A stretch of DNA of 64,000 nt from Octopus vulgaris (Eukaryota), in contig OX597826.1 in assembly GCA_951406725.2 (NCBI GenBank), positions 50,654,001-50,718,000 on the forward strand. Reading direction: 5' to 3'. This document shows positions 13,067 through 60,289 of the stretch, piece after piece. The first letter of the stretch is position 1. Each line of letters starts with the position of its first letter. A program made the translations under genes and the position numbers. The notes beneath the pieces are model-generated. The model did not search any database. It saw only the letters and a list, made by a program, of their open reading frames with translations, and had not been told where the DNA came from.

Positions 13067-13179
<113 letters not shown>

Positions 13180-15000: not shown

Positions 15001-15062
15001 AGTATTCAATATCAAAGTTTTCTCTCTGTATATATTGATAACATATATTTTCTTTTTCTCAG

Positions 15063-15257
15063 ACTAAACAAGGAATGCGTCAGATATTACCAGCACCAGG
15101 TAAACCAGACTGCGGAGAGTTGAAATACTTGGACTTAAGACTTGACGACACTGCTGAGACCCCAAGTGGACCTCCTCCTTCTTGTGAATATCGGGAGATA
15201 GACTTTGTAAAGACCAATGCTTTGAGAAATGTAAAAAATGCCAGGGTGCTGGAATAA
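15063..15257 (+). CDS. Terminal coding exon of GAB/Daughter-of-sevenless family docking protein
   Basis: TTTTCTCAG acceptor, TAA stop; TKQGMRQILPAPGKPDCGELKYLDLRL...CEYREIDFVKTNALRNVKNARVLE contains the tandem SHP2-binding tyrosines (YLDL as in GAB1; YxxxDFVKTxA as in Drosophila DOS). Confidence 0.85.
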   Translation, partial: TKQGMRQILPAPGKPDCGELKYLDLRLDDTAETPSGPPPSCEYREIDFVKTNALRNVKNARVLE

Positions 15258-29421: not shown

Positions 29422-29565
29422 TTTAAAAGGACCAGAAATATAACAAAATATAACTCAGAGTTTCATGTTCCCATTCATCGGTCAGTTTTGTTAACAAAAC
29501 TGTCCAACAGATGGGAACGTGAAACTCTGAGTAACAGCTTTTGTTATATTTCTGCTCCTTTTAAA
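29422..29565. repeat. Palindromic fold-back element with two head-to-head hammerhead-like cores
   Basis: Arms TTTAAAAGGACCAGAAATATAACAAAA / TTTTGTTATATTTCTGCTCCTTTTAAA centred on GTTAAC. Confidence 0.75.
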
Positions 29566-29683: not shown

Positions 29684-29733
29684 TTAAAATTAAGGATAAA
29701 ATCTATATGTGATTTTATCAGGTAATTAGCTAT

Positions 29734-30046
29734 ATAAACTATATTAAGGGCAACCGGTGAGTGTTTCATCAGGCCAGCTCACATGCTAAAAGAAAATGCC
29801 AAATGGCGCTAAACTACCTTGAGTATCATATAAATGTGCACTGAAAGCGAGGGATTAAATTAAAAAAGATTTATGAAGAGGTTTAGTTATGTATCAATTG
29901 ATTTCAGGATTATAGACGAATACCCATTTTCTTTCCTCAGTGTATGTTTGGGATATTTAAGGTAGTTTAGCGCCATTTGGTGACTTCTTTTAGCATATGG
30001 CCTGGCATGTTGAAATATTCACCAGTTACCCTTAATATAGCTTTAT
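29734..30046. repeat. Inverted-repeat (fold-back) element
   Basis: Arms CTATATTAAGGGCAAC...CCAAATGGCGCTAAACTACCTT and AAGGTAGTTTAGCGCCATTTGG...GTTACCCTTAATATAG. Confidence 0.75.
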
Positions 30047-30066
30047 AATTATACTTATAAAATTAT

Positions 30067-31972: not shown

Positions 31973-32340
31973 GTAAATCCTTGAGTATAAATCCGCATTT
32001 TTTTCCCAAAATTTAACGGTCAAAATCCTTAGTGCATACTATATACGAGGTTAAAAATGAAAACTATTTTCTCAGCAATGTCCAAGTCTCCATTTGCTGT
32101 CTGGCAATGTTTATTCAGTTGCATTTTGTGATGTCGGGTGCGAAAATACCTTAAGCTAAGCCTGAAAGCAATGAAGTCATAAAAGAATCATCCATAACTT
32201 GCATTAAGCAACATTTATTAAAATAAAAGTATTCAGAACACAGAATAACATGTAACAAACACAATTTGCAAACATATTTACATTCCCAAATTACAGTTAA
32301 GAACATCACCATTATTGTATTACGCATGCACGGAAGTGTT
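31971..32340. mobile_element. pogo/Tigger-like MITE fragment, one end only
   Basis: TA-CCGTAAATCCTTGAGTATAA terminus after a (TA)n run; other TIR not found. Confidence 0.45.
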
Positions 32341-32884
32341 TGTTCGACTAGGTGCTACAGGTGAGGGTTGGTGACAGAAAGGGTATCTAGCCATAAGAAA
32401 TCTGCCTCATCAAATTCCGTTTGACTCATGCCAAGCATAGAAAAGAGGACATTAAAATGAGTCTAGCAGAAATTGCACCAATAATGATTACTTTCCAACT
32501 TAAAAATAAATTCTTCACCAGAAACCCCAAATGTACCCCTAGAATTCTAACATTTCTCTCAGGTTAGGAATTGTTGACCTAAACATATATCAACATGGTT
32601 GTAGTAAGACTTGAACCCACAACCTGTTAATTAACAATCTATATGTGTTATATAGAGACTTCTGGTATCAGTATAAGACTAGAAATTTGTGAGTGCTATA
32701 ATTAATTGTATTAACCTCATTATACAGCTGATATTTATTTTGCTAACCCAGAAGGCAAAGTCAACTTTATAAAAGGATACCAGGTATTTAGTCTAGCACT
32801 CTACTGTTTGTGCCAATCCACAAGCCTCTGTGATTGTAGAATAGAAAACAATGTTTCCAGTAACCTGAAGGTATAAAAAGCTGG

Positions 32885-33116
32885 AAGGCGGCGAGCTGGC
32901 AGAAACGTTAGCACGCCGGGCAAAATGCTTAGCGGTATTTTGTCTGCCACTACGTTCTGAGTTCAAATTCCGCAGAGGTCGACTTTGCCTTTCATCCTTT
33001 CGGGGTCGATTAAATAAGTACCAGTTATGCACTGGAGTCAATGTAATCGACTTAATCCGTTTGTCTGTCCTTGTTTGTCCCCTCTGTGTGTAGCTCCTTG
33101 TGGTCAGTAAAGAAAT
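32885..33116 (+). mobile_element. Young tRNA-derived SINE with 16-bp TSD
   Basis: TSD AGGTATAAAAAGCTGG at 32869-32884 and 33117-33132; CpG-retaining body; same family as 14768, 60760-60985(-) and 62660-62890(-). Confidence 0.85.
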
Positions 33117-33288
33117 AGGTATAAAAAGCTGGTGTTTTTAAGACCCAATATAAAAAGACAGGGTGGATGTAAATGCTAGATGTCATTCCATCAATCATAC
33201 TATACACTTAGACAAGCAATCTGTCAACAGACAAGTCTGTAGTTTTCTTTAAATGATGCTACTGGTCTTACATCCCCAGCTAGAAGTA

Positions 33289-36200
33289 GCAACTAGATCT
33301 CCCTCAATCACAGTGTACTGGCTTAAATAAAGAACGATACAATGAACAGAATATCAAAATATCATTATCCAACAGATGGTTTCCCTAATGTTCTGGTGAA
33401 GGTGAGGAAAGTACCCATTTATAGTTGGTCCCAGTCCCCATCCACCCTGTCATAAGTTGAACACCTCTGATGATAGCTTTGTTCAATCAGAACTGACTTT
33501 GGGTGGAGTAAACAACATGTAGGACCCATCAACTGAGGACTTAAAACATTCTAAATGCCATAAATTAATGATAGATCCATTGGAAAGCTAAAACAAACTA
33601 GAATGTTGTTCACAAAAATACATTATATAAACTATAAAAACTCCAAATGATTTAATCTGGTATTTTACCTCTACTACTACTACTACTACTATTATCACCA
33701 CCACCACCACCTCAATCTCCCAGGGCCATTTTAGCAGCATTAAAAACTCCTTGGCAAATCAGTGCACTGGGCCCTATAATATGTATTTATTGAAAGCTAC
33801 AACATATATAGATTAAAATTCCCCCTAGACCTGTGAGGCTACTAGGCAACTACTCAGTATACTCATGCCTGGAGATAGCACTACCGCCACTACCCCATCT
33901 GCTACTACTTTTGGCAATAAATATTTTTTAGTCTGAAATATTAAAAGGTTTCTTGTTGACTGTCAACAACAATTATTTTTTTTTGCTCTGAAGAAATTTA
34001 ATTTATTAATTAATTAAATAAAATCAAAGATAAATCAAAGTAAATTCAGTATCACAAAGGATGTTGTTCATCTTAATTCTTTTGAAACCAACCCACCCAA
34101 GGCTATCACCTCTGGCTTCATAGTACAATGCACTAATCTTTAAAGGTTTCATATGAGAATTAAAAAAGTTTTCTGTTATAATTTTATGTAAGAATTTTAA
34201 TTTTAGTTTCATTACAAATACCAACTTAATAATTGTTTCTGATAAAGATACAGGACCAGAAAGTTATGGGAGAGAGGGCTAGATGATCACCCTCCCTCCC
34301 ACCCAGTATTTTGACTGGTACTTTATTTTATTGACTGTGGGAGGATGAAAGGCATAAATGACATTCGCAACATTTGAACTCAGAACATAAAATGCCACAA
34401 CTAAATGCTGCAAATCATTTTGTCCAATACCCAAACAATTCTGCCAACCTATCACCCTGATGTAAAAGTAAATGATATTTAGTCTGATGATCTACTGACA
34501 TGATGGCAATGTTTAATAGTTCATTAAGCATTTAATTATTTTGAAAATTAAATTAAGCCATGGATAGTTTATGTTGTGAGAAATATGGCCACAAAAGGTT
34601 TAATCAAAATATGACATTGTAATTTCTTTCCTGTCATATTGTTGCTTTGTCCCAGGTGAGGTTTGATCAAGCAGACCTATGAACTATCAAAGACATTCCA
34701 GTTGTGACCATCTCATCTTGTTTATATATCCAAGACTACACTGTCCAATGTATTATTACCTTTCATTCTTCTGGAGGTCTAACTTCATTTATAATATTTT
34801 TTAAGATGGTAAGGTATGGTCTGAAAGATATATGGCTCCCTAGATTGGTAGTTAGCTCCAAGTTAGCCCAGATTGAACAGACCATGATAAAAGACATTCC
34901 AGTCCTTGTTTATTTATGTTTGTTGGCTAACATAAAATATCTGGGATTACATTATCCAGTGAGTGAGAGCTTCTATGTGGTGACTCAATCTGCTTGACAT
35001 AACAGCTAAATATCTCTCACCTCTCATCCTGCCATGATTTTCTTGTAGATGTTAATACATAGATGTTTAAACTTATTGATGTCCCCAGTTCAGGAGGACC
35101 AACATTTAAAGATGCAACCCTTTCTCTCTAGACTCACCACTAGAAAAATTACTTTCTAAGACATTAAAAGACATTCGATTTTAGTTGCCTTTCTTTTATA
35201 TTTTTGTTTAACTGTAGAAGAAAATGGAATGTTCTTAGCTTTTGAAGAACTTTATAGACTGAAATAAAACTGAGTGTGATTGTTGTAACGATGTGAAAAT
35301 TGAACTTTTGGTTTGGGCAAGGTGAGAGAGAGTTCCAGAGAAGTTCAAGATGGAAGAAAGTGGGATTAAGTAAAAATGTTGGCATGAAAGATAGTCAAGA
35401 AGATGTCAGACACAGTGATATAAATTTATTCTTTGGTGGCATTGCGCTAATTATTATTATGATTATTATTAATATTATTATCATTAATGATTGACAAATG
35501 ATCAAAATAAAATATTTTAAAATTTTTTCCAAGAATTATAATGCAATGTCCCAGAATGACCATAGCTGTGATGACTTAACTGACAAAATGAACAAAGATT
35601 ACATAATAATTTTGCTATTTACTTACTGCAAAATTTTTTTTTTTTCTTTTTGATCTTTTTATTTTTCATTCCTGACAATTTGGGATATCCTTTGAAAAAT
35701 AAAAGATTAAAATCATGGCAAAAATATTTCCAAACTATTTATTTTTAATTTTTTGCAATTCTGAAGAAGAAAATTATTTTGCATGGATTGTGGTTATATT
35801 GCAACAGGCAAAGACAAAATAAAAAAAAAACTGTCCAAGAAAAAAAATCTGTCCTCATTAGCTTCAAAACATACTGAAAAATTATTTTTAAAATCAACTG
35901 CTTTTTCATTATCAGTTTTTTCTAAATAAATTAAAATATTAATCTTACAATGCTTTTGTTTTAAATATTTATTTTTAAAATGTTCTCATGTCTTCAACGT
36001 TTTGTTTCTTACTTTCACTAAATAAATGGTAAATCAAGGACTTTTAGCTGCCATAAGTCACAATCAAAACCTTGTTCCATCTATGACACCACCACACTCA
36101 CGTTCACTCATATCTCAACACTGATGAAATGTTGGTATTTAGAAAATGTGCTGAAAATTATGAACGAAATTTGAGCTTCATGCATGTGTTTTTTGTTTTA

Positions 36201-36313
36201 TTTTTCCAGTTTCACTGGTTTCCTCATATTGTAGGAGAGAGAGAGAGGAGAAATGTTATTAACATACTGATATTTGAACTCTAAAAAAAAAAAGAACAAT
36301 TTTAACTCCAGTA
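33289..36313 (+). repeat. 3 kb direct duplication, copy 1
   Basis: Collinear with 41433-45885 from GCAACTAGATCTCCC to TAACTCCAGTA, with scattered substitutions and indels. Confidence 0.95.
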
Positions 36314-39300
36314 TGAACGTGTGAGTGCGCATACGCGTACATGTGCGTGCGCATGCGCGAACGTGTGAGTGCGCATGCGCAAACGTATGCTTACGTATGC
36401 GCGAACGTTTGCTTGGGCATGCGCGAAAGTGTGCGTGCAAACGCGCGAACGTATTACTACGCATGTGCTAACGCGTGACTGCGCATTCGCGAAAGTGTGA
36501 CAGTGCATGCGCGAATGTGTGAATTTCGGGCAAAATTTTCCAAAAATTTTAGTGAAAAGTTTTCGGTCAAAATTTTCCAAATATTTTTCTGCAATATTTT
36601 CGGTGAAAATTTACCAAAAATTTTTGAGGAAAATTTTTGAAAATTTTCGAAAAATTTTCGGATAATTTTCGTCAAAATTTTCCAAAATTTTTCTGCAATT
36701 TTTCAAAAAAAAATTTTTGGAGAAAACTTTCGGTGAAACTTTTCGAAAAATTTTCCGGACAAAATTTTGGGGATAATTTTCAATGAAAATTTTCGAAAAC
36801 TTTTTGTGAAAAATATTCGGTCAAAATTTTCCAAATATTTTCCTGCAATATTTTCGGTCAAAATTTTACAAAAATTTTTGGGGAAAATTTTTCAAAAAAA
36901 TTTTCGGTGAGCGTGTGCGTGCGCATGCGCGAAAATGTGACTGCGCACGCGCGAATGTGTCACTGCGCATGCGCGAAAGTGTGACTGCGCATGCGCGAAA
37001 ATGTGACTGCGCATGCGCGAGAGTGTGACTGCGCATGCGCGAATTTGTGACTGCGCATGCGCAAACGTGTGATTGCGCGTGCGCGATGTTGTGACTGCGC
37101 ATGCGCGAATGTTTGACTGCGCATGCGTAAAAATGTGACTGCGCATGCGCGAAAGTGTGACTGCGCATGCGCGAAAGTGTGACTGCGCATGCACGAAAAT
37201 GTGACTGCGCACGCGCGAAAATGTGACAGCGCATGCGCGAGAGTGTGACTGCGCATGCGCGAATATGTGACCATGCGCGAATGTGTCACTGCGCATGCGC
37301 GAGATTGTGACTGCGCATGCGCGAATGTGTGACTACGCATGCGCGAAGGTGTGACTACGCATGCGCGAAAGGTCTGACTGCGCATGCGCGAAAGTTTGAT
37401 TGCGCCTGCGCATGCGCGAAAGTGTGAAAATTGTCGAAAAAATTTTCGTGGAAATTTTTGGGGAAAATTTTCAATGAAAATTTTCGAAAAATTTCGGGCA
37501 AAATTTTCCAAAAATTTTAGTGAAAAGTTTTCGGTCAAAATTTTCCAAATATTTTTCTGCAATATTTTCGGTGAAAATTTACCAAAAATTTTTGAGGAAA
37601 ATTTTTGGGGATAATTTTCAATGAAAATTTTCGAAAAATTTTCGCTCAAAATTTTCCAAATATTTTTCTGCAATATTTTGGTGAAAATTTTCAACAAATT
37701 TTTCGAGAAAACTTTCGGTGAAAATTTTCGAAAAATTTTCCGGACAAAATTTTGGGGATAATTTTCAATGAAAATTTTCGAAAAATTTTTGTGAAAAATT
37801 TTCGAAAAATTTTTGTGAAAAATATTCGTTCAAAATTTTCCAAATATTTTCCTGCAATATTTTCGGTGAAAATTTTACAAAAATTTTGGGGAAAATTTTT
37901 CAAAAAAAATTTTCGGTGAGCGTGTGCACGCGTATGCGCGAAAATGTGACTACGCACGCGCGAATGTGTCACTGCGCATGCGCGAAATTGTGACTGCGCA
38001 TGCGCAAAAGTGTGACTGCGCATGCGGCAAGGTCTGACTGCGCATGCGCGAGAGGGTGACTGCGCATGCGCGAGAGGGTGACTGCGCATGCGCGAGAGGG
38101 TGACTGCGCATGCGCGAATTTGTGACTGCGCATGCGCAAACGTGTGATTGCGCATGCGCGAATTTGTAACTGCGCATGCGCGAAGGTCTGACTGCGCATG
38201 CGCGAAGGTCTGACTGCGCATGCGCGAATGTTTGACTGCGCATGCGCGACCGTGTGACTGCGCATGCGCGAAAGTGTGAAAATTTTTGGGTGAAAATTTT
38301 CGAAAAATTTCCGGGGAAAATTTTTGGGGAAAATTTTCAATGAAAATTTTCGAAAAATTTTCGGGCAAAATTTTCCAAAAATTTTAGTGAAAAGTTTTCG
38401 GTCAAAATTTTCCAAATATTTTTCTGCAATATTTTCGGTGAAAATTTTCAAAAAATTTTTGGAGAAAACTTTCGGTGAAAATTTTCGAAAAATTTTCCAG
38501 ACAAAATTTTGGGGATAATTTTCAATGAAAATTTTCGAAAAATTTTTGTGAAAAATATTCGTTCAAAATTTTCCAAATATTTTCCTGCAATATTTTCGGT
38601 GAAAATTTTACAAAAAAAATTTTTCAAAAAAATTTTCGGTGAGCGTGTGAGTGCGCATGCGCGAAAATGTGACTGCGCACGCGCGAATGTGTCACTGCGC
38701 ATGCGCAAAAGTGCGCGAATGTCTGCGTGGGCTGCGCATGCGCGAATGTCTGCGTGGGCATGCGCCAAGGTCTGACTGCGCATGCGCGAAATTGTGACTG
38801 CGCATGCGCAAAAGTGTGACTGCGCATGCGCGAATGTTTGACTGCGCATGCGTGAAAATGTGACTGCGCATGCGCGAAGATCTGACTGACTGCGCATGCG
38901 CGAGTGTGACTGCGCATGCGCGAATGTGTGACTGCGCAGCATGCGCAAACGTGTGACTGCGCATGCGCGATGGTGTGACTGCGCATGCGCGAGAGTGTGA
39001 CTGCGCATGCGCGAAGGTCTGACTGCGCATGCGCGAAGGTCTGACTGCGCATGCGCGAATGTCTGCGTGCGCATGCGCCGAGGTCTGACTGCGCATGCGC
39101 GATATTGTGACTGCGCATGCGCAAAATTGTGACTGCGCATGCGCGAATGTTTGACTGCGCATGCGTAAAAATGTGACTGCGCATGCGCGAAGGTCTGACT
39201 GCGCATGCGCGAGAGTGTGACTGCGCATGCGCGAATGTGTGACTGCGCATGCGCAAACGTGTGACTGCGCATGCGCGATGGTGTGACTGCGCATGCGCCA

Positions 39301-41432
39301 TGGTGTGACTGCGCATGCGCGAGAGTGTGACTGCGCATGCGCGAAGGTCTGACTGCGCATGCGCGAAGGTCTGACTGCGCATGCGCGAATGTTCTGACTG
39401 CGCATGCGCGAAGGTCTGACTGCGCATGCGCGAATGTGACTGCGCATGCGCGAACGTGTGACTGCGCACGCGCGAAAGTGTGAAAATTATTTGGGGAAAA
39501 TTTTCAATGGAAATTTTCGAAAAATTTCGGGCAAAATTTTCCAAAAATTTTAGTGAAAAGTTTTCGGTCAAAATTTTACAAATATTTTTCTGCAATATTT
39601 TCGGTGAAAATTTACCGAAAATTTTTGGTGATAATTTTGATAATTTTCGGTGAGCGTGTGCGTGCGCATGCGCGAAAATGTGACTGCGCACGCGCGAATG
39701 TGTAACAGCGCATGCGCGAAAGTGTGACTGCGCATGCGCGAATGTCTGCGTGCGCATGCGCCAAGGTCTGACTGCGCATGCGCGAAATTGTGACTGCGCA
39801 TGCGCAAAAGTGTGACTGCGCATGCGCGAATGTTTGACTGCGCATGCGTGAAAATGTGACTGCGCATGCGCGAAGATCTGACTGCGCATGCGCGAGTGTG
39901 ACTGCGCATGCGCGAATGTGTGACTGCGCATGCGCAAACGTGTGACTGCGCGTGCGCGATGGTGTGACTGCGCATGCGCGAGAGTGTGACTGCGCATGCG
40001 CGATGGTCTGACTGCGCATGCGCGAATGTCTGGCTGCGCATGCGCGAATGTTTGACTGCGCATGCGCGAATGTCTGCGTGCGCATGCGCGAAGGTCTGAC
40101 TGCGCATGCGCGAAATTGTGACTGCGCATGCGCGAATGTTTGATTGCGCATGCGTAAAAATGTGACTGCGCATGCGCGAAGGTCTGACTGCGCATGCGCG
40201 AGAGTGTGACTGCGCATGCGCGAATGTGTGACTGCGCTGCGCAACGTGTGACTGCGCATGCGCGATGGTGTGACTGCGCATGCGCGAGAGGGTGACTGCG
40301 CATGCGCGAGTGACTGCGCATGCGCGAATGCGCATGCGCATGACTGCTGCGCATGCGCGATGGTTGACTGCGCATGCGCGGAGTGTGACTGCGCATGCGC
40401 GAGGTTGACTGCGCATGCGCGAGGTTGACTGCGCATGCGCGATGGTGTGACTGCGCATGCGCGAGAGTTTGACTGCGCATGCGCGAAGGTCTGATGCATG
40501 CGCATGCGCGATGGTCTGACTGCGCATGCGCGAAGGTCTGACTGCGCATGCGCGAATGTGACTGCGCACGCGCGAAAGTGTGAAAATTTTTGGGGAAAAT
40601 TTTCAATGGAAATTTTCGAAAAATTTCGGGCAAAATTTTCCAAAAATTTTAGTGAAAAGTTTTCGGTCAAAATTTTACAAATATTTTTCTGCAATATTTT
40701 CGGTGAAAATTTACCGAAAATTTTTGAGGAAAATTTTTGGTGATAATTTTGAAAATTTTCGGTGAGCGTGTGCGTGCGCATGCGCGAAAATGTGACTGCG
40801 CACGCGCGAATGTGTCACAGAGCATGCGCGAAAGTGTGACTGCGCATGCGCGAATGTCTGCGTGCGCATGCGCCAAGGTCTGACTGCGCATGCGCGAAAT
40901 TGTGACTGCGCATGCGCAAAAGTGTGACTGCGCATGCGCGAATGTTTGATTGCGCATGCGCGAATGTGTGACTACGCATGCGCGAAAGAGTGATTGCGCA
41001 TGCGCGAACATGTGACTGCGCATGCGCGAACCTGTGACTGCGCATGTGCGAATGTTTGACTGCGCATGCGCGAACATGTGACTGCGCATGCGCGAAAGTG
41101 ACTGCGAAAGTGTGAAAATTTTCGAAAAATTTTTGTGAAAAATTTTCGATGAAAATTTTCGAAATATTTTTGGGGAAAATTTTTGGTGAATATTTTCGGT
41201 GAACGTGTGCGTGCGCATGCGCGAACGTGTTACTGCGCACGCGCGAACGTGTGACTGCGCATGCGCGAACGTGTGACTGCGCATGCGCGAAAATGCGACT
41301 GCACATGCACGAATGTGTGACTGCGCATGAGCGAAGGTCTGACTGCTCTTGCCTAAAATTGTGACTGCGCATGCGCGAAAGTGTGACTGCGCATGCGTGA
41401 TAGTGTGACTGCGCATGCTCGAATGTGTGACT
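36314..41432. repeat. Bipartite satellite: 7 GC blocks of (GTGACTGCGCATGCGCGAAN)n alternating with 6 AT blocks of (GAAAATTTTC)-like repeats
   Basis: Approximate blocks: GC 36314-36520, AT -36908, GC -37425, AT -37918, GC -38278, AT -38640, GC -39482, AT -39650, GC -40582, AT -40762, GC -41113, AT -41200, GC -41432; block junctions are conserved. Confidence 0.95.
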
Positions 41433-44400
41433 GCAACTAGATCTCCCTCAATCACAGTGTACTGGCTTAAATAAAGAACGATACAATGAACAGAATATCA
41501 AAATATCATTATCCAACAGATGGTTTCCCTAATGTTCTGGTGAAGGTGAGGAAAGTACCCATTTATAGTTGGTCCCAGTCCCCATCCACCCTGTCATAAG
41601 TTGAACACTTCTGATGATAGCTTTGTTCAATCAGAACTGACTTTGGGTGGAGTAAACAACATGTAGGACCCATCAACTTTGGACTAAAACATTCTAAATG
41701 CCATAAATTAATGATAGATCCATGGGAAACCTAAAACAAACTAGAATGTTGTTCATAAAAATACATATAAAATATAAAAACTCCAAATGATTTAATCTGG
41801 CATTTTACCACCACCACCACCTCCTCGCCCTCCTCCTCCTCAATCTCTCAGGGCCATTTTAGCAGCATTAAAAACTCCTAGGCAAATCAGTGCACTGGGC
41901 CTTATATGTATTTATTGACAGAAAGCCACAACATATATAGATTAAAATTCCCCCTAGACCCGTGAGGCCACTAACTACCCAGTATACTCATGCCTGGAGA
42001 TAGCACTACCACCACTACCCTATCTGCTATTACTTTTAGCAATAAATATTTTTTAGTCTGAAATATTAAAAGGTTTCTCATTGACTGTCAACAACAATTA
42101 TTTTTTTTGTTCTGAAGAAATTTAATTTATTAATTAATTAAATAATATCAAAGATAAGTCAAAGTAAATTCAGTATAACAAAGGATGTTGTTCATCTTAA
42201 TTCTTTTGAAACCAACCCACCTAAGGCTATCACCTCTGGCTTCATAGTACAATACACTAATCTTCAAAGGATTCATATAAGAATTAAAAAAGTTTTCTGT
42301 TATAATTTTATGTAAGAATTTTAATTTTAGTTTCATTACAAATACCAACTTAATAATTGTTTCTGATAAAGACACAGGACCTGAAATTTATGGGAGAGAG
42401 GGCTAGATGATCATCCTCCCTCCCACCCAGTATTTTGACTGGTACTTTATTTTATTTACCGTGGGAGGACAATAGCCATAAATGACATTCACAACATTTG
42501 AACTCAGAACATAAAATGCCATAACTAAATACTGCAAAGTATTCTGTCCAATGCCCAAACAATTCTGCCAACCAATCACCCTGATATAAAAGTAAATGAT
42601 ATTTAGTCTGATGATCTACTGACATGATGGCAATGTTTAATAGTTCATTAAGCATTTAATTATTTTGAAAATTAAATTAAGCCATGGATGGTATATGTTG
42701 TGAGAAGTATGGCCACAAAAGGTTTAAACAAAATATGACATTGTAATTTCTTTCCTGTCATATTGTTGCTTTGTCCCAGGTGAGGTTTGATCAAGCAGAC
42801 CTATGAACTATCAAAGACATTCCAGTTGTGACCATCTCATCTTGTTTATATATCCAAGACTACACTGTCCAATGAAGGGTCCTTCATTTATTATATTTTT
42901 TAAGATGGTAAGGTGTGGTCTGAAAGATATATGGCTCCCTAGATTGGTAGTTAGCTCCAAGTTAGCCCAGATTGAACAGACCATGATAAAAGACATTCCA
43001 GTCCTTGTTTATTTATGTTTGTTGGCTAACATAAAATATCTGGGATTACATTATCCAGTGAGTGAGAGCATCTATGTGGTGACTCAATCTGCTTGACATA
43101 ACAGCTAAATATCTCTCACCTCTCATCCTGCCATGATTTTCTTGTAGATGTTAATACATAGATGTTTAAACTGGGGATTAACCTTATTGATGTCCCCAGT
43201 TCAGGAGGACTGACATTTAAAGATGCAACCCTTTCTCTCTAGACTCACCAATAGAAAAATTACTTTCTAAGACATTAAAAGACATTTGATTTTAGTTGCC
43301 TTTCTTTTATATCTTTGTTTAACTGTAGAAAAAAAAGGAATGTTCTTAGCTTTTGAAGAACTTTATAGACTGAAATAAAACTGAGTGTGTTTGTTGCAAC
43401 TATGTAAAAATTAAATTTTTGGTTTGGGCAAGGTGAGAGAGAGTTCCAGAGAAGTTCAAGATAGAAGAGTGTGGAATTAAGTAAAAATGTTGGCATGAAA
43501 GATAGTCAAGAAGATGTCAGACACAGTGATATAAATTTATTCTTTGGTGGCATTGCGCTAGACCTTGCTCTAATTGCTGAGTCGCTATCAGAACTGGAGG
43601 AGAAGTTTCAGGTGTGGAAACAAGGATTAGAATCGAAGGGCCTCAGAGTCAATCTAGCTAAAACCAAAGTCGTAATCAGTAGGAAGGTAGACAAATCACA
43701 AACGCCTTCAGGTAGATGGCCCTGCTCGATCTGTAGAAAAGGTGTAGGTAGAAACTCTATAAGATGCACCAAGTGTAAGCTATGGACACATAAGAGGTGC
43801 AGCAATGTCAAAGGAAGGCTAACTAGGAAGATGGTTTTGTATGTGGCAGATGCTCAGGAACAATAAACACTGAAAATGCTCTGAGACCAACTTCCGTCAC
43901 TTTCCAGGGAGAAAAACTAGAAATAGTTGATAGTTTCCGTTACCTAGGTGACCAAGTCAGCAGCGGGGGCGGGTGTGCTGAAAGTGTAACTGCTAGAGTA
44001 AGAATAGCTTGGGCAAAGTTCAGAGAGCTCTTACCTCTGCTGGTGACAAAAGGCCTCTCGCACAGAGTGAAAGGCAGACTGTATGATGCGTGTGTACGAA
44101 CAGCCATGCTACATGGCAGTGAAACATGGGCCATGACTGCTGAGGATATGCGTAAGCTCGCAAGAAATGAAGCCAGTATGCTCCGATGGATGTGTAATGT
44201 CAGTACTCATACTCGGCAGAGTGTAAGTACCTTGAGAGAAAAGCTGGACCTAAGAAGCATCAGTTGTGGTGTGCAAGAGAGATGTTTGCGCTGGTATGGT
44301 CATGTGGCAAGAATGGATGAAGATAGTTGTGTGAAAAAGTGCCACACCCTAGCGGTTGAGGGAACCTGCGGAAGAGGCAGACCCAGGAAAACCTGGGATG

Positions 44401-45885
44401 AGGTGGTGAAGCACGACCTTCGAACTTTAGGTCTCACTGAGGAAATGACTAGAGACCGAGACCTCTGGAAGTGTGCTGTGCGCGAGAAGACCTGGCAGAA
44501 CAAGTGAGTCCATAACCTGTGGCCTTCTACATGGGATGGAGCCAGCCTACGTATGCATACCTTCCCTTCTTGGGACACAAAACTCTACTTGTGAAGACCT
44601 GTTGAGGCAAGTGAGGATCAGAATCGAAATCGATCAATGGAAATTGCAGATGTGTTACCAGTGCCGGTGGCATGTAAGAGAACCTTCCGTTTCGCGACCG
44701 TTACCAGCGCCGTCCCGACTGGCCTCGTGCCGGTGGCACGTAAAAAGCACCATCCATTTGTGTCCATTGCCAGCCTCGCCTGGCCCCCGTACCGGTGGCA
44801 CATAAAAAGCACCATCCGTTCGTGGCGGTTTGCCAGCTCTGTCTGGCACCTGTGCAGGTGGCACGTAAAAAGCACCCACTACACTCACGGAGTGGTTGGC
44901 GTTAGGAAGGGCATCCAGCCGTAGAAACACTGCCAGATTTGACTGGGCCTGATGAAGCCTTCTGGCTTCACAGACCCCAGTTGAACCGTCCAACCCATGC
45001 TAGCATGGAAAACGGACGCTAAACGATGATGATGATGATGATTATTATCATTAGCGATTGACAAATGATCAAAATAAAATATTTTAAAATTTTTTCCAAG
45101 AATTATAATGCAATGTCCCAGAATGACCATAGCTGTGATGACTTAACTGACAAAATGAACAAAGATTACATAATAATTTTGCTATTTACTTACTGCAAAA
45201 TGTTTTTTTTTCTTTTTGATCTTTTTATTTTTCATTCCTGACAATTTGGGATATTCTTTGAAAAATAAAAGATTAAAATCATGGCAAAAATATTTCCAAA
45301 CTATTTATTTTTAATTTTTTGCAATTCTGAAGAAGAAAATTATTTTGCATGGATTGTGGTTATATTGCAACAGGCAAAGACAAAATAAAAAAAAACTGTC
45401 CAAGAAAAAAAATCTGTCCTCATTAGCTTCAAAACATACTGAAAAATTATTTTAAAAATCAACTGCTTTTTCATTATCAGTTTTTTTCTAAATAAATTAA
45501 AATATTAATCTTACAATGCTTTTGTTTTAAATATTTATTTTTAAAATATTCTCATGTCTTCAACGTTTTGTTTCTTACTTTCACTAAATAAATGGTAAAT
45601 CAAGGACTTTTAGCTGCCATAAGTCACAATCAAAACCTTGTTCCATCTATGACACCACCACACTCATGTTCACTCATATCTCAACACTGATGAAATGTTG
45701 GTATTTAGAAAATGTGCTGAAAATTATGAACGAAATTTGAGCTTTATGCATGTGTTTTTTGTTTTATTTTTCCAGTTTCACTGGTTTCCTCATATTGTAG
45801 GAGAGAGAGAGAGGAGAAATGTTATTAACATACTGATATTTGAACTCTAAAAAAAACAAAAAAACGAACAAGTCTAACTCCAGTA
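41433..45885 (+). repeat. 3 kb direct duplication, copy 2 (with 1.5 kb LINE insertion)
   Basis: Matches 33289-36313 apart from the insertion at 43561-45041. Confidence 0.95.
43561..45041 (+). mobile_element. 5'-truncated RTE-clade non-LTR retrotransposon
   Basis: Begins at the end of the YADD motif (DLALIAESLSELEEKFQVWKQGLESKGLRVNLAKTKV); then Cys-rich finger, FRYLG, MLHGSETW, LRWYGHVARM, RGRPRKTW; frameshift near 43835; 3'UTR subrepeats and (GAT)n tail. Confidence 0.92.
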
Positions 45886-46501
45886 AGACCTGATCTTTCA
45901 CGAAGCAGTTTTAAATAAACACTGTAAGTCATATAGCCATGTATTTTACTATATATCTGTCATCTCACCATCCTTTGTGTGATAAAACATATGTCATCTA
46001 TTTAAATGTCAGTATATTACACAGGCTGTGTGGTAAGAAGCTTGCTTCCAAACTGCATGATACTAGGTTCAGTCCCACTGCATGATACCCTGGGCAAGTG
46101 TTTTCTACTACAGTCTTGGACCAACCAAAGCTGTGTGAGTAGATTTTGCACAATGAAATTGAAAGGAGTCCATTGTATGTGTGTGTGTGTTATTGTCTCT
46201 TTATGTTCACATTGCTAAGTAGTTGTAAATGAGTATCACCTTCATGCAGGTGGTGTCTTTTGTTTCCAGTCTTTCACTAAAACATGTCTGGTCATGGAGA
46301 AGTACTACTTTGCCTGGAAAAAGGGTTGGTGAGAGGAAGAGCATCTGGCCGTAGGAAATCTGACGTTAAACCAATAATGATGATGATAATGATGATGATG
46401 AGGAGGAAGAGGAGAAGATAAGTGCTATTGAGTAATTATAAGCTGTTGTCAAGCAAAGCTTGCAATGAAGGTTCAATTCACAACTGAGCTATTTACTCCT
46501 A

Positions 46502-48734: not shown

Positions 48735-49423
48735 CTGGGCCACAGCAACAAAGTCCACCTGCCACACTTGATAGTCCATCACTGCCTCAAGGTCCTGGAT
48801 ACATTCCAGGACAGTGTCTGCAATCAAGTTGTCGATGCAAGTGCGACAAAGTTTTCCTCTTCTTACATCACCATGAAGTGGGTTCCATAAGACTGATTTG
48901 GATGCCAGGAGTTCAAAGTGGCACACACAGTGACCAGATAGTCACAGCTGTCTTTGCCTGATCTTCTTGCTAACTTTCAAGCAGTTCTCCATAAAGGCAC
49001 TTGTTTGTCATATGTTGTTGCCATTTCATATTTAGGGCTCTTGTAGCATCCTTATGTAGCAGCCATCTAACCTGTTTGATAATTTCTTTGTCAGTATCCA
49101 TGTATCACTGCCATATAATAGCATTGATATGACAGTTGCCATGAACAAATCTGCCTCATCTTGCTGTTATAGGCTTTTTTTAGTTCAGCATGGTTGCAGG
49201 GATAACATAAAGGCACTTGTTTGTCATATGTTGTTGCCATTTCGTATTTAGGGCTCTTGTAGCATCCTTATGTATCAGCCATCTAACCTGTTTGATAATT
49301 TCTTTGTCAGTATCCATGTATCACTGCCATATAATAGCACTGATATGACAGTTGCCATGAACAAATTTGCCTGATCTTGCTGGTATAGCCTTTTTTAGTT
49401 CAGCATGGTTGCAGGGAAAACAT
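48735..49423 (-). mobile_element. Degenerate RTE-like LINE 3' fragment with an internal 216-bp tandem duplication (48990-49205 / 49206-49421)
   Basis: Minus strand LASKSVLWNPLHG..RRGK..TCID-like C-terminus and (TAA)n tail; duplicated unit starts CATAAAGGCACTTG. Confidence 0.65.
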
Positions 49424-51217: not shown

Positions 51218-52004
51218 TATATATATATTTTTGATAAGTTAACTGGCTAATTGCAGCTGTCTTTAGCAGTCGAGTGTCCATCATTTACAAGACCAAACAA
51301 AGTTGAAATCACATAATCTGGTGGTCTTGGCACTGGAGTTAGCAGGGATTTATCTCCCCAGTTGAGATATAAACAGGAGTGTATTTGGCACTATTATGGG
51401 AGTTGCTCTCATGTTAACTTCCACAATAAAGTGTGTTCTAATAGAACTTACAGTGATAGAGTTTAGTTGCCCTGCAGGTGTGAACATCTCTTCCAAAGTC
51501 AGAGTAAAAGAGAATATCCGTAGAAAATTCTTTGAAGCCTGTAGCTCCTTTAACAGGATTATAAATTTATAAATCCTAGAGAATATAAGATTTTCATGTA
51601 GAGACTGGCTAACATGAACTTTACACACAATCTGCAAGTGAAACTGTAAAAATATGCAAGACTTTCCTAAAGTTCAATATGTTATAATAATCATTCTTAT
51701 CCAAACTCCAATTATTGATCTTTTGTACCTTTGTTAGAAACCTATTCCTTTTAGAAAGAATGGTAATAAGTCAAAAGACATACAGACAAAAAGAAAAGAA
51801 AACAAACAAATAAAGAAAACAAAACTCAAGTTACATTTTGGAAGATTTTTATATATAATTTAAAAATATAGATAACAACAAGTGAAGAATTTGTAATATT
51901 TAACAACTAAAGAATGGATATGAGAAGAAAATGGCCAAGGGAAATGGGACATCTGAAATGGAATATTTATGTTTGTCTGTGTTTATATATATATGACAAT
52001 TATT

Positions 52005-52225
52005 CGGTAGCCATGATAAAAAACTCCGAGTTTTGGATGCCGAGGTGGAAATCCATGCCACCATCTCTTCAGTTATCCGGCCATTATCCGGAAAACTGAA
52101 GAGATGGCGGCGTGGATTTCCATCTTGGCATCCGAGGCATTTTTTTGATGGCCGGATAACTGAAGAGATGGCAGCATGGATTTCCACCTCGGCATCCGAA
52201 ACTTGGAGTTTTACCATGGCTACCG
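52005..52225. repeat. Fold-back element with three copies of a hammerhead-like unit
   Basis: CGGTAGCCATG...CATGGCTACCG termini, ~78-bp arms and a partial third copy in the loop; CTGAAGA at 52096 and 52160. Confidence 0.8.
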
Positions 52226-52229
52226 TATA

Positions 52230-52293
<64 letters not shown>

Positions 52294-54455: not shown

Positions 54456-54802
54456 TATTATTATATTTACACAATAGCAAATAAATAATTTTCAGGTTTT
54501 TGTTTGCTTGTTAATGAACGATGGAATCATTATCAATTAGTGCCATTAACAATTAATAGAAATTAGAGAAGAAAATGGAGAATTGATGTGATAACTTCTA
54601 ATGATATAAGCAGGATGTTATAATGGTAGTGACACTAGATGGCAGATTTGTGATATCTCACTCTGCTTAACTTTGAAATTCTAGTAGAAATTTGTTGGTA
54701 TTTAAGAAAGAAGAATTCCTCTTCTTATAAACACTTTTATTACTATATTTCTGCTGAAACATTTATGTATTTGTTTTGCAAGATTCCTGATGTGAAATTG
54801 TG

Positions 54803-55117
54803 TGTTGAAACAGATATTGTAATATTTTGGGATGGTCATTTTTTTTCTGCCAAATAAACACATGCACTGTATATTTGTTCTTCACTTCAGCTTTATTATG
54901 GTTCTTATTTTAATGTCGTTTTTGTTTGAAATCTTTTGTCACATATCACTGAAGAGGTCACAGGATGTGTGACAAAAGATTTCAGGTGAAGGACACTAAA
55001 ATAAGAACAAAAATAAATCCCAAGTGAAGAATGACTATATAATGCATATGTTTATTCGGCAAAAAAAAAAAGGAAAAAAAAATCCATCCTGAAATATAAC
55101 ACTATCTGTTGAAACAC
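54803..55117. repeat. Degenerate fold-back element with central CTGAAGAG
   Basis: GAAATCTTTTGTCACA / TGTGACAAAAGATTTC inner arms, with complementary outer arms. Confidence 0.65.
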
Positions 55118-56498: not shown

Positions 56499-57049
56499 TG
56501 TGGTGTTATGAGCTGTGATGAGCTATGTGGTGTTGGTGGAGGGGATTGCAGATGAGGTAAATGGAAGTGAAGACTACAGGGGCTGGTGGAAGAGCCACGG
56601 GGGCATGCGTGGGCAAAAAGCATATGGGGCAGTTGGACGAGAGACAGGAGCGTGCAAGGACATGTTTTTTTTTTCGACAGTGATTGCTCATCCCGCCTAG
56701 GTCAACAGGTATGGTCTCTGTATTTCTTTCTCCCATTTTCTTCTTTTTTCTGTTGTTTTTTTCCTCCATCACACTACAAGCTATTTTGGTCCATAACAAA
56801 AAGAAGCAAAGAAGGAGAAAGAAATACAGAGACCTTACCTGTTGACCTAGGCAGGATGAGCGATCACTGTCAAGAGAAAAAAACATGTCCTTGCACACTC
56901 CTGTCTCTCATCAAACTGCTAAACATGCTTTTTGCCCATGCATGCCCCCGTGGTTCTTCCACCAGCCCCTGCATTCTTCACTTCTGTTTACCTCATCTGC
57001 AATCCTCTCCACCAACACCACATAGCTCATCACAGCCCATAACACCACA
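56499..57049. mobile_element. Long fold-back MITE with TGT...ACA ends
   Basis: ~235-bp arms (56499-~56731, ~56815-57049) that are highly complementary, ~85-bp spacer. Confidence 0.85.
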
Positions 57050-57800: not shown

Positions 57801-57887
57801 TTAATTCACTTTCGATAATCCAGAAAGAACGACTGTGACTATTGTTAGACCGAATGCTAAAAACAGGATTAACATGTTTTTGAGTCC
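57801..57887 (-). CDS. TMEM144: TMEM144 terminal coding exon (GLKNMLILFLAFGLTIVTVVLSGLSKVN*)
   Basis: TTTCAG acceptor, phase 0, TAA stop; matches the TMEM144 C-terminus (GLQNYLLMILAF...AFSKI). Confidence 0.9.
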   Translation of the reverse strand, partial: GLKNMLILFLAFGLTIVTVVLSGLSKVN

Positions 57888-58560
57888 CTGAAATATAGAA
57901 GAGAGAAAATGGTTAACTTCAGGTGAAAAAAAAAAACAACAACTTATTCTATACATTTATTGTTACATTTGTAGTTGTTGTCGACTTGATAGAAGACCAC
58001 AAGATTATCCACCATCTTCATAACACCAACTTTGGCCACCCTTTTTCAATACAATATCTACAACCCACATAGTTTTAATGTCCCCCTTTTCATGCTTGAG
58101 TATATTAGGGCAGATTTTCTATGGCTGGATTCCCTTCCTGTTGTCAACCCTCGTCTATTTCCAAGCAAGGTAACATTTCTCCATAGCCAGACATGTTTTT
58201 GCAGAATATTGGAAATGAATGACACTACTTGTATGAGTGTGACAATCATTCTACAAACATCACACAAGGTCAAGGCAAGAAGACACATACAACACATGCA
58301 TACACACACAGACATATATATACATACAAATGAACCTCCCTCAGTTTCTGTCTATCACATCCTCATGTTATATTACACACACACACACACACACATTCAA
58401 TAGTATGCTTTACCAGATATCTTAATATTTGACTAAGGTAGTTGCAAGCTTAAAATTCAATTCCAATTTGAAAACTGTGTCATAATTGTATTATCCACAT
58501 AGGGACAGACTAGATTCTTACTAACTTGGATCATACATTATTAGAAATAATCACAAAACC

Positions 58561-58766
58561 AATTATTGATATTTTGAATGTATTATTTAATACATATATT
58601 TCAAGTAGTTATGTAACAACAATTTGTTATGTGTCACCCTCATCAGTCAATTACAAACAAAATATTTGCCTCTAATCAATTAATGAGGATGATACTTATG
58701 TAGCAAATTGTTACATAACCCCTTGAAGCAGATGTATTAAATAATGCATTCAAAATATTAATAATT
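58561..58766. repeat. AT-rich fold-back element with degenerate hammerhead-like cores
   Basis: AATTATTGATATTTTGAATGTATTATTTAATACAT / ATGTATTAAATAATGCATTCAAAATATTAATAATT arms; CTGATGAG on - strand at ~58639-58646. Confidence 0.7.
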
Positions 58767-58789
58767 CTAAATACTCTCATTCAACACAG

Positions 58790-59000
58790 CAGTTGCAGGC
58801 TGGAAGAGGCCTTGTGGCAGGCCTGCACCAAATAGCCGGATGTAATTGGGAAAGATCTTCAGAGGTTTGACATTACCTTAGAGGATACAGAGAGGCTGGC
58901 ATGGGACCGTCAGCAATGGAGAGCACGGATGATGCCTCTGAGACCACTAATCTGTGATGACCACAGCTGCATCAAGTAAGAGCATGAAGCCAAGAAGAAG
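58790..59000 (+). mobile_element. Short RTE-like LINE 3' fragment
   Basis: AGWKRPCGRP...DLQRFDITLEDTERLAWDRQQWR-like translation. Confidence 0.55.
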
Positions 59001-59991
59001 CCAAGTGTGTGCGTGTTGGCTAGCCCAGGGTTATACTAGAAAATATTTGCCCAAGGTGTCACAAATTAAGACTGAACCCAAATCCATGTGATTGGGAAGT
59101 GAATGTCTTAACCACACAACCATGCCTGCGCCTTATAGAATGCCAAATTTCATAATCTATTGTGTCATAGAAATAACGTGCTAAAGCTTCTGTCTTTTAG
59201 CAGGGCAAGTTAGCTTCATATAGTCAATACTTTCCCAAATTGTCCATCAAAATGCAGGTATGGCAGTATGGTTGAGATGTTGAGAAGCTCCTGTGTGTAC
59301 ATAGCTTGGAATGGTCAAAGCTGGAAGCCCTTTCATCCAAGGCCTACTCAGTTAAGTTTGAGCTGAAACTAAATAACATTAGTAACAGTAACAACAACAA
59401 CAACAACCATAGCAGCAACAACAGTTGACTATTAACTTTTTAAATGACAGGCTCATCCAAGCTGAGCAAATATGAAAAAAAAAAAAAAAGATTTAAAAAA
59501 CAAAGAATCAGACATGGGTGTGTGGTAAAAAGCTTTGTTTACCAACCACATGGTTTTAGGTTCAGTCCCACTGCATAGCACCTTTGGCAAGTGTTTTCTA
59601 CTATAGCCTCAGGGTAATCAAAGCCTTGTGAATGGATTTGGTAGGTGGAAACTGAAAGAAGCCCGTCATGTATATATATATATGTGTGTGTGTGTATGTG
59701 TGTGTGTAAGTATGACTGTGTCTGTGTTTGTCCCCATCACCAATTGACAACTGGTGTTGGTGTGTTTACATCCCTATAACTTAGTGGTTTGGCAAAAAGA
59801 GGCTGATACAAAAAGTACCAAACTTTAACGTAAAATAGTACTGGGGTCGATTCATTCGACTGAAATCCTTCGAAGTGGTGCCCCAGCATGGCTGCAGTCA
59901 AATGACTGAAACCAGTGAAAGACAAAAGATAACCATAACAAAATAAAAAAAAGAAAAAGAAATAAAAAACATTAAAAAAATTGTAGTTTAC

Positions 59992-60263
59992 CTTAATTTC
60001 TTTGAAGAGCAACACTCCCCATGCTGAGGCAATCAACATCGGCCCCGATGTGATAATGGGGAAGGAGACTGGTTCCAACAGAACGGCATTGGCCACGAAA
60101 AAGCAGGCCGTGGCAACACCCCACATTATTCCTGATATGATCCCTGGGAGAATAGCTTTAGGGTAAACTACTGGTTTGTTACGCATGAAAATAACATAGA
60201 TACAGAAATACACTGATGCAGTCAAGTAAATCCCACAGTAATGAGCGAAAACATAGTCCAAAC
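59992..60263 (-). CDS. TMEM144: TMEM144 penultimate coding exon
   Basis: TTTCTAG acceptor and GTAAAC donor; LDYVFAHYCGIYLTASVYFCIY...PGIISGIMW...VSFPIITSGP..WGVLLFKEIK is the recognisable TMEM144 (DMT-like) segment. Confidence 0.93.
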
Positions 60264-60289
60264 CTAGAAAAAAAAGAGAAATAAATAAA

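Follow-up and report, generated by a model that had tools for sequence, protein, structure and literature searches.

The 3' ends of the octopus GAB2 and TMEM144 genes flank a 5.1-kb array of CpG-rich palindromes and A/T-rich DNA, and the question that this locus raises is how such an array came to lie there and whether a protein holds it in shape. We analysed it within a window of 64 kb, the whole stretch of DNA under study. The array lies where an earlier note had placed it, at 36314-41432, with 2 further bases common to the right flank. GAB2 and TMEM144 converge on it and no gene start is close by (Table 1). The CpG richness that had been described for it also holds, with a CpG observed/expected ratio of 1.88 in the array versus 0.22 and 0.36 on its two sides. 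Neither Rfam nor a tRNA scan gave any match in the window. We considered a coding array and rejected it: there are long stop-free frames on the minus strand because the unit has no stop codons, but indels switch the frame throughout. At the GAB2-TMEM144 locus the array has most likely been tolerated as a passenger, without being needed for regulation.

Table 1. Positions of the array blocks, the flanking duplication and the neighbouring exons in the 64-kb window.
Feature	Position	Strand	Description
GAB2/DOS last coding exon	15054..15254	+	21 kb left of array, pointing towards array
Left duplication copy	33289..36313	+	flush against array
GC block 1	36314..36521	+	9 complete degenerate 22-bp units; 19% unit divergence, core 13/100
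A/T block 1	36522..36911	+	390 bp; 5'-truncated relative to A/T block 2, 2.6% from block 2
GC block 2	36912..37424	+	~23 units
A/T block 2	37425..37920	+	496 bp
GC block 3	37921..38278	+	~16 units
A/T block 3	38279..38643	+	365 bp; 1.7% from A/T block 2
GC block 4	38644..39482	+	~38 units
A/T block 4	39483..39654	+	172 bp; 0.6% from A/T block 5
GC block 5	39655..40582	+	~43 units; 41-42% of 30-mers in common with GC blocks 4 and 6
A/T block 5	40583..40766	+	184 bp; has a 138-bp identical segment in A/T block 4, offset 1099
GC block 6	40767..41114	+	~16 units
A/T block 6	41115..41203	+	89 bp; 9-11% from every other A/T block
GC block 7	41204..41434	+	10 complete degenerate units; last 2 bases common to right copy
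Right duplication copy	41433..45885	+	holds retroposon piece; right-copy variants in runs X1, X2 and X3
5'-truncated non-LTR retroposon piece	43561..45035	+	in right copy; PHD-like finger, (GAT)n tail; right end approximate
TMEM144 last coding exon	57804..57890	-	16 kb right of array, pointing towards array

The array is a two-part minisatellite with higher-order repeats of roughly 1 kb. Seven GC blocks alternate with six A/T blocks between them, as had been proposed. The GC blocks sum to 3425 bp, or ~156 units, which falls within the 150-170 estimated before, and they hold 149 cores at no more than 2 mismatches; the units recur every 22 bp (120 of 148 spacings), where ~20 bp had first been given. 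These units are nested inside A/T+GC units of 0.4-1.1 kb, spaced at 1009, 723, 1011, 1112 and 437, with near-exact segments at offsets of 968-1112. Monomers thus run head to tail within a longer unit of higher identity, which defines a higher-order tandem repeat. Recurrent junctions, another earlier claim, were found at all 6 AT-to-GC transitions and, as GAAAGTGTGAA, at 5 of the 6 GC-to-AT transitions, the first of which is a deletion form. Close pairs of A/T blocks are 0.6-4.3% apart, 30-mer sharing peaks between neighbouring GC blocks (4-5 and 5-6), GC block 1 has no 30-mer in common with the other GC blocks, and the 79 distinct unit types stand in ordered series. Core divergence reaches 13% and 8.8% in the two terminal blocks and 1.2-3.2% inside, so the ends are the most degenerate part, as had been noted; the array edges are oldest. 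Nested periods, similar neighbours and degenerate edges are also features of higher-order satellite and minisatellite arrays with variant-repeat interspersion, although the octopus higher-order unit is composed of two monomer classes that are unrelated and opposite in composition.

The A/T blocks proved to be built differently from what the earlier note had supposed. AAAATTTT occurs 80 times in the array, compared with a maximum of 7 in 500 first-order Markov resamples, and A4T4-type tracts are a likeness to curved (GA4T4C)n DNA. However, the monomers are 10-15 bp and not ~10-11 bp, with periods of 24 and 37. Tract-centre coherence is 0.80-0.93 at 12.3 bp in five of six A/T blocks and 0.12-0.31 at 10.5 bp, and only 30% of 107 spacings measure 9.5-11.5 bp. 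Over 4 tracts, local phase coherence at 10.5 bp is 0.42, which equals random (0.45) and not the ideal (0.94). Because the tracts are 12.3 bp apart and lack coherence at the 10.5-bp helical repeat, where 10-10.5-bp phasing would be expected, we conclude that these blocks do not belong to classic curved (GA4T4C)n DNA.

The core of the GC unit is GCGCATGCGC, present in 113 exact copies where 500 first-order Markov resamples gave at most 4. As sequence, the NRF1 site named before is therefore correct: PMC10810270 gives the GCGCATGCGC-type site as the one that human NRF1 prefers, and the CpG-rich tandem tract repeats this consensus, which is that of the human protein, from unit to unit. The core carries 52 substitutions in 1690 positions and the remainder 288 in 1712. 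Allowing for descent, inferred changes per site are 3.2 in the core versus 6.9 outside it (all blocks; Mann-Whitney p 0.013), or 1.4 versus 5.1 in interior blocks (p 0.003), so that the spacers change 2-3.6 times as much as the core. The contrast between a near-invariant core and variable spacers thus stands for the core, but not for all of the spacer: invariance equal to that of the core is also seen at two non-palindromic positions, a T three bases into the unit and an A that follows the core by two bases. Alleles in at least 3 units number 4 in the core and 16 outside, and singletons 12 and 8 (Fisher p 0.02), in a test biased by spacer allele saturation and with 9 of the 12 core singletons in terminal blocks. 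Among 29 interior core substitutions, 15 break GCGCNTGCGC; given this and the two invariant outside positions, site-specific mutability or homogenisation may suffice without a protein. CpG sites have been retained. Among inner CpGs, transitions affect 2 of 238 sites where the units are interior and 7 of 57 where they are terminal, in blocks that are not homogenised; in the flanks, 7 of 11 CpG sites differ by transition between the duplication copies. Purines and pyrimidines alternate over 12 bp in most such runs (121), while five extend to 21 bp and one to 35 bp. Other motifs in the array are the E2F-like TTTCGCGC (28 copies), TTCNNNGAA (19), TTCGAA (16) and one heat-shock element; we set them aside because they are expected in dyad-rich repeats.

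The flanks hold a feature absent from the earlier reading, a 3-kb direct duplication. The array fills the join of its two copies exactly (3.0 kb; Table 1). BLAST self-matches pair 33289-35449 with 41433-43560 (93%) and 35459-36316 with 45026-45888 (97%). The copies differ at 99 of 2956 aligned bases (3.3%), patchily, at 0.8-7.8% per 250 bp. The retroposon piece (PF00628, E 1.6e-05), presumably RTE-like, entered the right copy after the duplication. The left join is flush and the right join has 2-bp microhomology, an arrangement that fits junction-insertion duplications (direct repeat of unique DNA on both sides of an insert, 0-10 bp of microhomology). The array has neither a terminal inverted repeat nor poly(A) nor a telomere repeat, and the best inverted match between its ends is the 9-bp core. 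AGTA precedes the left copy and also ends both copies, either as a possible 4-bp target duplication or by chance. In GC block 1 the core divergence of 13% far exceeds the ~1.7% per copy predicted by the age of the duplication; therefore, this block was captured already degenerate or is older than the duplication.

We used public read contigs to ask about abundance. Summed contig depth on 36331-36450, which is not a copy number, was 2341 times single-copy in run X1, 716 in X2, 215-285 in X3 and 10788 in X9, where the 5.1-kb array alone would give 46-94 in simulation and 235 at the extreme bound. The excess is clear in X1, X2 and X9 and marginal in X3, whose value is not clearly above that bound; it concerns the GC unit alone, which was the part mapped. 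It indicates that more 22-bp units probably sit elsewhere in the genome. Among the sequencing runs, none of RNA was listed as containing the sequence, and small shares in runs presumed to be RNA were left out of account. The rough total is 10-800 kb by run, a 40-fold spread that remains below 1 Mb in all 4 runs.

Beyond the octopus, the exact two-unit pattern had no match in viral, metagenome or prokaryote genome contigs. Looser core patterns retrieved 10 viral and 96 metagenome loci (L011-L106), all with unrelated spacers. The metagenome arrays carry an TGCGCATGCGC core in tandem at periods of 18-41, with at most 15 exact cores and a best spacer alignment of 70% identity, and the search that retrieved them used exactly this core and no control palindrome. 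In all but one of 11 foreign arrays (10) the core is better conserved than the spacer, which we do not count as support because they were picked for exact cores. By a density cut-off, dense A-tract blocks on both sides were found at none of the 74 loci with both flanks. At one locus, L016, the repeat finder and inspection by eye revealed A/T-rich repeats on both sides.

The explanation that we favour, at about even probability, is that a satellite was captured during repair of the duplication and then amplified in place, its core likely bound by NRF1/EWG and likely unmethylated. The repair event that produced the 3-kb duplication would probably have copied in a piece of a repeat family from elsewhere, by template switching or end joining, which PMC3638133 describes as hard to tell apart. 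The duplications of the FoSTeS/MMBIR or end-joining class treated there share foreign DNA at the join of the duplicated segments and 0-2 bp of microhomology. The insertions described in that text are small, whereas the octopus insert is 5.1 kb of satellite, and it is far bigger probably because it grew afterwards. Growth in place, likely by unequal exchange, agrees with neighbours being most alike: A/T blocks 4 and 5 are 0.6% apart and blocks 2 and 3 1.7%, with block 6 at 9-11%. Binding of an NRF1/EWG-type factor, which we predict as likely from the core's sequence, would then act as the filter that retains the palindrome. NRF1 binding is methylation-sensitive according to PMC10810270 and PMC6600276, and the array would probably stay low in methylation. 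Against the latter, PMC9476566 reports that in O. bimaculoides satellites were the repeat class with more methylation.

The same site could serve instead as an NRF1-driven promoter repeat, with donors near chromosome ends or fixed landmarks that drive non-coding transcription, like the human subtelomeric 61-29-37 repeats; the interstitial copy would still open chromatin while its A/T blocks keep nucleosomes off. PMC6600276 describes the human repeats as a composite of short tandem tracts that includes a CpG-rich minisatellite with a methylation-sensitive NRF1 site per unit, the 29-bp repeats driving TERRA in a methylation-dependent manner. A total of 10-800 kb with a 40-fold spread between runs would fit many chromosome ends having a few kb each, and retention of the core and its CpGs points the same way. 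The octopus array differs from that description in its exact GCGCATGCGC, its 22-bp units and an A/T-rich partner alternating six times, and it is interstitial. The telomere repeat TTAGGGTTAGGG has no match in the window or within the array, genes lie on either side, and both neighbours end towards the array, which does not fit a subtelomeric position. Among the 96 metagenome loci, L044 alone has a telomere-like repeat beside a palindrome array, inside a retroposon-like fragment rather than at an end. We consider this account unlikely.

Equally unlikely, in our judgement, is a neutral array that no protein binds, in which the palindrome and the A/T dyads persist through hairpin slippage and arm-to-arm copying. 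As single strands, GC and A/T blocks do fold better than shuffles (z -3.0 and -3.9), the G-to-A change that is common behind the core (17 units) lengthens the palindrome, and conserved positions exist outside the NRF1 site too. However, the commonest core variant, central T to C in 10 units, breaks the palindrome and keeps GCGCNTGCGC on the other strand; in one metagenome array, L017, perfect cores take turns with GCGCAGGCGC, a non-palindromic sequence that fits the consensus as well, amid variable spacers; and CpG decay is low even in the terminal blocks.

Carriage as cargo of a mobile element, either Helentron/HINE-like or an LTR-type derivative with the 3-kb copies as long terminal repeats, is very unlikely, even though the 22-bp unit is probably present elsewhere by read-contig depth. 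In Crassostrea gigas, also a mollusc, PMC7492417 describes short satellite-like arrays dispersed in Helentron-associated Cg_HINE elements, some with two arrays. The octopus array directly abuts the duplicated flank and shows none of the modules of such an element (subterminal inverted repeat, microsatellite, 3' palindrome), and it is flanked by a 3-kb duplication where Helitrons, according to that same paper, leave no target duplication. For the LTR version, a LARD-like element should have dispersed long terminal repeats with TG...CA ends and a short target duplication, whereas the 3-kb copies end GC...TA. In its parts without other repeats, the 3-kb sequence has ~2 times single-copy depth (X1: 120 versus 60-71) and is therefore no dispersed LTR.

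Higher-order structure and dyad symmetry are typical of centromeric satellites, and this array resembles them in both. We nevertheless find a centromeric or heterochromatin-seeding satellite extremely unlikely, and with it the centromere seed of the earlier note: the rough abundance (by run) makes the 22-bp unit probably too scarce for a main centromeric satellite, although libraries biased against GC palindromes could conceal further copies, and the array here is only 5.1 kb among ordinary genes, with a 22-bp unit and no helical phasing. The relative methylation of octopus satellites (PMC9476566) would favour it.

An artefact in which the assembly linked two haplotypes by way of a collapsed repeat is hardly credible, because variants of both copies occur at about single-copy depth in X1, X2 and X3 (three studies, one run possibly being the assembly source), contig record 32 of X9 bridges the left join (35492-36449), and contigs in X1, X2 and X3 start exactly at 33289, the branch point that the right join predicts. 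The mis-join that had been named as a danger is thus unlikely, and the 79 unit types in ordered series also argue against it. In favour of an artefact are the patchy identity of the copies, the internal unit number, which short-read contigs cannot verify, and the right join, at which no listed contig shows array letters; that join is observable only as a branch point, a SINE-like repeat in the mapped sequence having masked joints and loose ends. In X9 the left join is present and the depths are compatible with two copies, with only left-type contigs among those listed. Of the 15 listed diagnostic sites, 11 have the left-copy state in contig 31 of organism D; judged from these sites, the duplication is older than the split from organism D. 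No empty, unduplicated ancestral site appeared in the public runs compared.

A literature search gave no account of this octopus repeat, in a collection that lacks most subscription papers and repeat databases, so that a RepeatModeler entry in an octopus genome supplement may exist; the word 'satellite' was absent from the cephalopod genome and repeat papers and the 2026 review that were text-searched. Cephalopod tandem repeats are almost undescribed, and the array supplies exact 22-bp and junction probes for a family that seemingly varies widely in amount between close relatives. A bolder possibility, which we regard as decidedly doubtful, is a portable octopus CpG-island-like module of NRF1 blocks and nucleosome-disfavouring A/T blocks, parallel to the TERRA promoter, pasted by break repair and varying in amount up to 40-fold between close relatives; NRF1-core minisatellites might then recur across animals, titrating NRF1 and seeding open chromatin. 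The locus would record satellite movement at a duplication join in a germ line. If NRF1 does not bind it, the array is an ordinary, though tidy, composite minisatellite. If NRF1 does, ~113 perfect sites in 5 kb, with more elsewhere, would allow a test of factor titration by satellites, or of unmethylated islands, in an invertebrate.

We conclude that the array, a two-part satellite, is genuine: a minisatellite of composite make-up that lies where two duplicated copies meet. The earlier note had placed 7 palindrome blocks and 6 A/T blocks at 36314..41432, and both counts and coordinates hold; the GC blocks sum to 3425 bp and the A/T blocks to 1696 bp. Its estimate of 150-170 units also stood (~156), but its period of ~20 bp did not, as core-to-core spacing is 22 bp in 120 of 148 cases and a repeat finder gives the same GC period. 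The array contains 113 occurrences of GCGCATGCGC and 80 of AAAATTTT; the highest counts across 500 Markov resamples were 4 and 7, respectively. The junctions recur as described (AT-to-GC, 6/6; GC-to-AT, 5/6), and the reported high CpG density in a CpG-poor region was confirmed by observed/expected ratios of 1.88 in the array versus 0.22 and 0.36 outside. No second array-like sequence was found within the 64-kb window.

The A/T blocks differ from their earlier description. Instead of ~10-11-bp units, we found monomers of 10-15 bp arranged in 24- and 37-bp periods, with tract centres coherent at 12.3 bp (0.80-0.93 in 5/6 blocks) rather than at 10.5 bp (0.12-0.31). Across four successive tracts the 10.5-bp coherence is 0.42, close to that of random phases (0.45), so planar curvature is not predicted and the claim of curved (GA4T4C)n DNA, ideally 0.94, fails. 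Z-DNA, also proposed, is possible yet unremarkable, because most alternating purine-pyrimidine runs are 12 bp.

A direct duplication around the array had been overlooked: 3025 bp on its left (copy B, 33289-36313) recur on its right (copy B', 41433-45885). The order flank-B-array-B'-flank matches that of a tandem duplication with junction insertion, as set out in an excerpt of PMC3638133, where template switching and end joining are described as hard to tell apart. The left join is flush and the right has 2 bp in common; no terminal inverted repeat, poly(A) or telomere repeat was found in the array. The left breakpoint falls within a short interspersed-repeat fragment (33281-33330), with a similar start near 3790. 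B' was later interrupted by a truncated retroposon piece. Of 2956 aligned bases, 99 differ between B and B'; the divergence varies from patch to patch (0.8-7.8%) and is lowest at 35539-36288, a pattern suggestive of gene conversion. We consider an LTR-type element unlikely, as the flanks are not a dispersed LTR, and likewise the oyster Helentron element, whose modules (from an excerpt of PMC7492417) the array lacks.

Part of the stretch is present in 20 of 24 listed public runs (four organism labels, ten studies); the best run share is 0.41, whereas the flanks account for only ~0.20 of the distinct 31-mers. Contigs of 4 of the 24 runs were aligned to 32300-36450, a region whose SINE-like repeat swamped the joint tables. 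In runs X1, X2 and X3, variants of both B and B' occur at roughly single-copy depth (for example, 82/164 at 35279 in X1 and 65/112 at 33581 in X2), and each run has a contig beginning exactly at 33289, the point at which the assembly graph branches into a second upstream context. In run X9, labelled organism D, a single contig covers 35492-36449, and another is of the left type at 11 of the 15 diagnostic sites listed; the B/B' split therefore predates divergence of the organism D lineage. X9 has no break at 33289 and only left-type contigs among those listed, at depths that fit two copies. A mis-join, which the earlier note had considered, is thus countered at the left join by the X9 contig across it, whereas the right join has the branch at 33289, its array letters being in none of the contigs listed for the four runs. 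The assembly itself may derive from one of these runs.

Higher-order spacings are 1009, 723, 1011, 1112 and 437 bp, and near-exact segments recur at offsets of 968-1112. A/T blocks 4 and 5 diverge by 0.6%, 2 and 3 by 1.7%, and block 6 from all others by 9-11%. Shared 30-mers peak between neighbouring GC blocks (4-5, 0.42; 5-6, 0.41); GC block 1 has none in common with the rest, and for GC block 7 the share is at most 0.04. This pattern would fit interior blocks that undergo unequal exchange while the edges stay frozen. Core divergence in GC block 1 is 13%, well above the 1.7% per copy since the duplication; this block therefore either was degenerate when captured or preceded the duplication.

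Relative to single-copy depth, summed depth on the GC-unit segment 36331-36450 was 2341-fold in X1, 716-fold in X2, 285-fold in X3 and 10788-fold in X9, while a SINE-like control spanned only 0.88-1.44 million. Unitigs from the array alone predict 46-94 under looser alignment settings, with an extreme bound of 235, which X1, X2 and X9 exceed; X3 is borderline. Because summed contig depth is no copy number and there may be library bias on GC palindromes, the rough totals of the 22-bp unit (X1, 85-175 kb; X2, 26-53 kb; X3, 10-21 kb; X9, 394-804 kb) indicate presence elsewhere and order of magnitude only. In the origin we propose, a satellite piece would have been copied into the duplication join from a repeat family elsewhere and then re-amplified in place.

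The exact two-unit pattern had 0 matches in viral, metagenome and prokaryote contigs. A looser pattern, scanned with this core alone, matched 10 loci in viral and 96 in metagenome contigs; their periods range from 18 to 41 and their spacers bear no relation to those of the array. When a strict threshold was set on tract density, none of 74 loci had A/T-tract blocks on both sides of the palindrome block. Metagenome locus L016 (132-1055) has 20-bp units that share the TGCGCATGCGC core of the array, between two A/T-rich repeats, the first of them tandem; the alternation is that of the array but the sequence is unrelated, and the unit recurs with other flanks in L040, L053, L074, L090 and L099. 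Metagenome locus L017 (1165-1594) is an array of 21-bp period in which GCGCATGCGC alternates with GCGCAGGCGC as the core, among variable A/T-rich spacers (divergence 0.06 in the core, 0.38 in the spacer). On a viral contig of 235,646 bp (L004, 1362-1663), six GCGCATGCGC cores, some with short A/T tracts after them, form a cluster whose size and place we take to be reminiscent of a cytomegalovirus lytic origin. The literature searched, a scope outside which supplements and repeat databases lay, held no description of the array, and a term search found no use of 'satellite' in PMC9068888, PMC8967140 or PMC12988792.

Under unbiased tiling, 52/1690 substitutions in the 11-bp core against 288/1712 outside bear out the claim of a near-invariant core and variable spacers, although two positions beyond the palindrome are equally invariant. 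When descent was taken into account, with the 79 distinct units linked in a spanning tree, changes per site were 3.2 in the core and 6.9 elsewhere (p = 0.013), and 1.4 and 5.1 in interior blocks (p = 0.003). Core and non-core positions have 12 and 8 singleton alleles, and 4 and 16 alleles in at least three units. Weighing against retention of the core, allele numbers in the spacers approach saturation, terminal blocks hold 9 of the 12 core singletons, and 15 of 29 interior core substitutions disrupt GCGCNTGCGC.

The core holds as an NRF1 site by sequence, as had been claimed: excerpted text of PMC10810270 gives GCGCATGCGC as the human NRF1 preferred site, GCGCNTGCGC as the consensus, and fish, sea urchin and fly as having homologues, a conservation from which we assume an octopus homologue. 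Pure hairpin correction could instead keep the palindrome, and GC and A/T blocks both fold well as single strands; however, the most frequent core variant breaks the palindrome while retaining the NRF1 consensus on the opposite strand, and L017 likewise retains it with another, non-palindromic centre. For these reasons we lean towards a protein filter acting on the core and away from hairpin correction.

In the duplicated flanks, transition differences occur at 7/11 CpG sites versus 50/941 other C/G sites; in the array, 2/238 interior inner CpGs and 7/57 terminal CpGs have decayed. On these counts methylation appears lower in the array than around it, the flank sample being small at 11 CpG sites. 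Counting against low methylation, an excerpt of PMC9476566 gives satellites as the relatively more methylated repeat class in O. bimaculoides.

The array sits between converging 3' ends, 21 kb from GAB2 and 16 kb from TMEM144, within the 42-kb interval between their 3' exons. No gene start was found near it, and no RNA family or tRNA in the 64-kb window. A frame at 4702-5067 (-) presumably recalls a decayed mariner-type transposase.

Features of the window, with coordinates counted within it
Feature	Position	Strand	Remarks
Array	36314-41432		+2 bases common to right flank
Non-LTR retroposon piece, truncated	43561-45035		PHD-like finger, (GAT)n tail; target, (ATT)n run of right copy
GAB2/DOS 3' exons	11143-15254	+	
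GAB2 last exon	15054-15254	+	100% to protein named Octopus sinensis (queried exons)
TMEM144 3' exons	57804-62221	-	
TMEM144 last exon	57890-57804	-	100% to protein named Octopus sinensis (queried exons)
Six fold-back (inverted repeat), MITE-like elements	56499-57049; 51963-52268; 54802-55117; 29733-30047; 29422-29565; 58561-58766		140-550 bp
Tandem duplication	48990-49423		216 bp, two copies, 95% identity
Minisatellite	2669-2863		32-bp unit, 6 copies

By analogy, the closest working parallel may be the human 61-29-37 subtelomeric repeats, which, in an excerpt of PMC6600276, have NRF1 sites in each 29-bp unit and drive TERRA. The array differs in being interstitial and without a telomere repeat, and is therefore not a member of that family; there is a slim chance that it is a portable NRF1 island paralleling the TERRA promoter repeats. 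We put at roughly even the overall reading, in which no function at the locus is inferred: that of a composite minisatellite sitting between duplicated copies, probably taken from a repeat family located elsewhere and then amplified again, with NRF1 binding and low methylation both likely.
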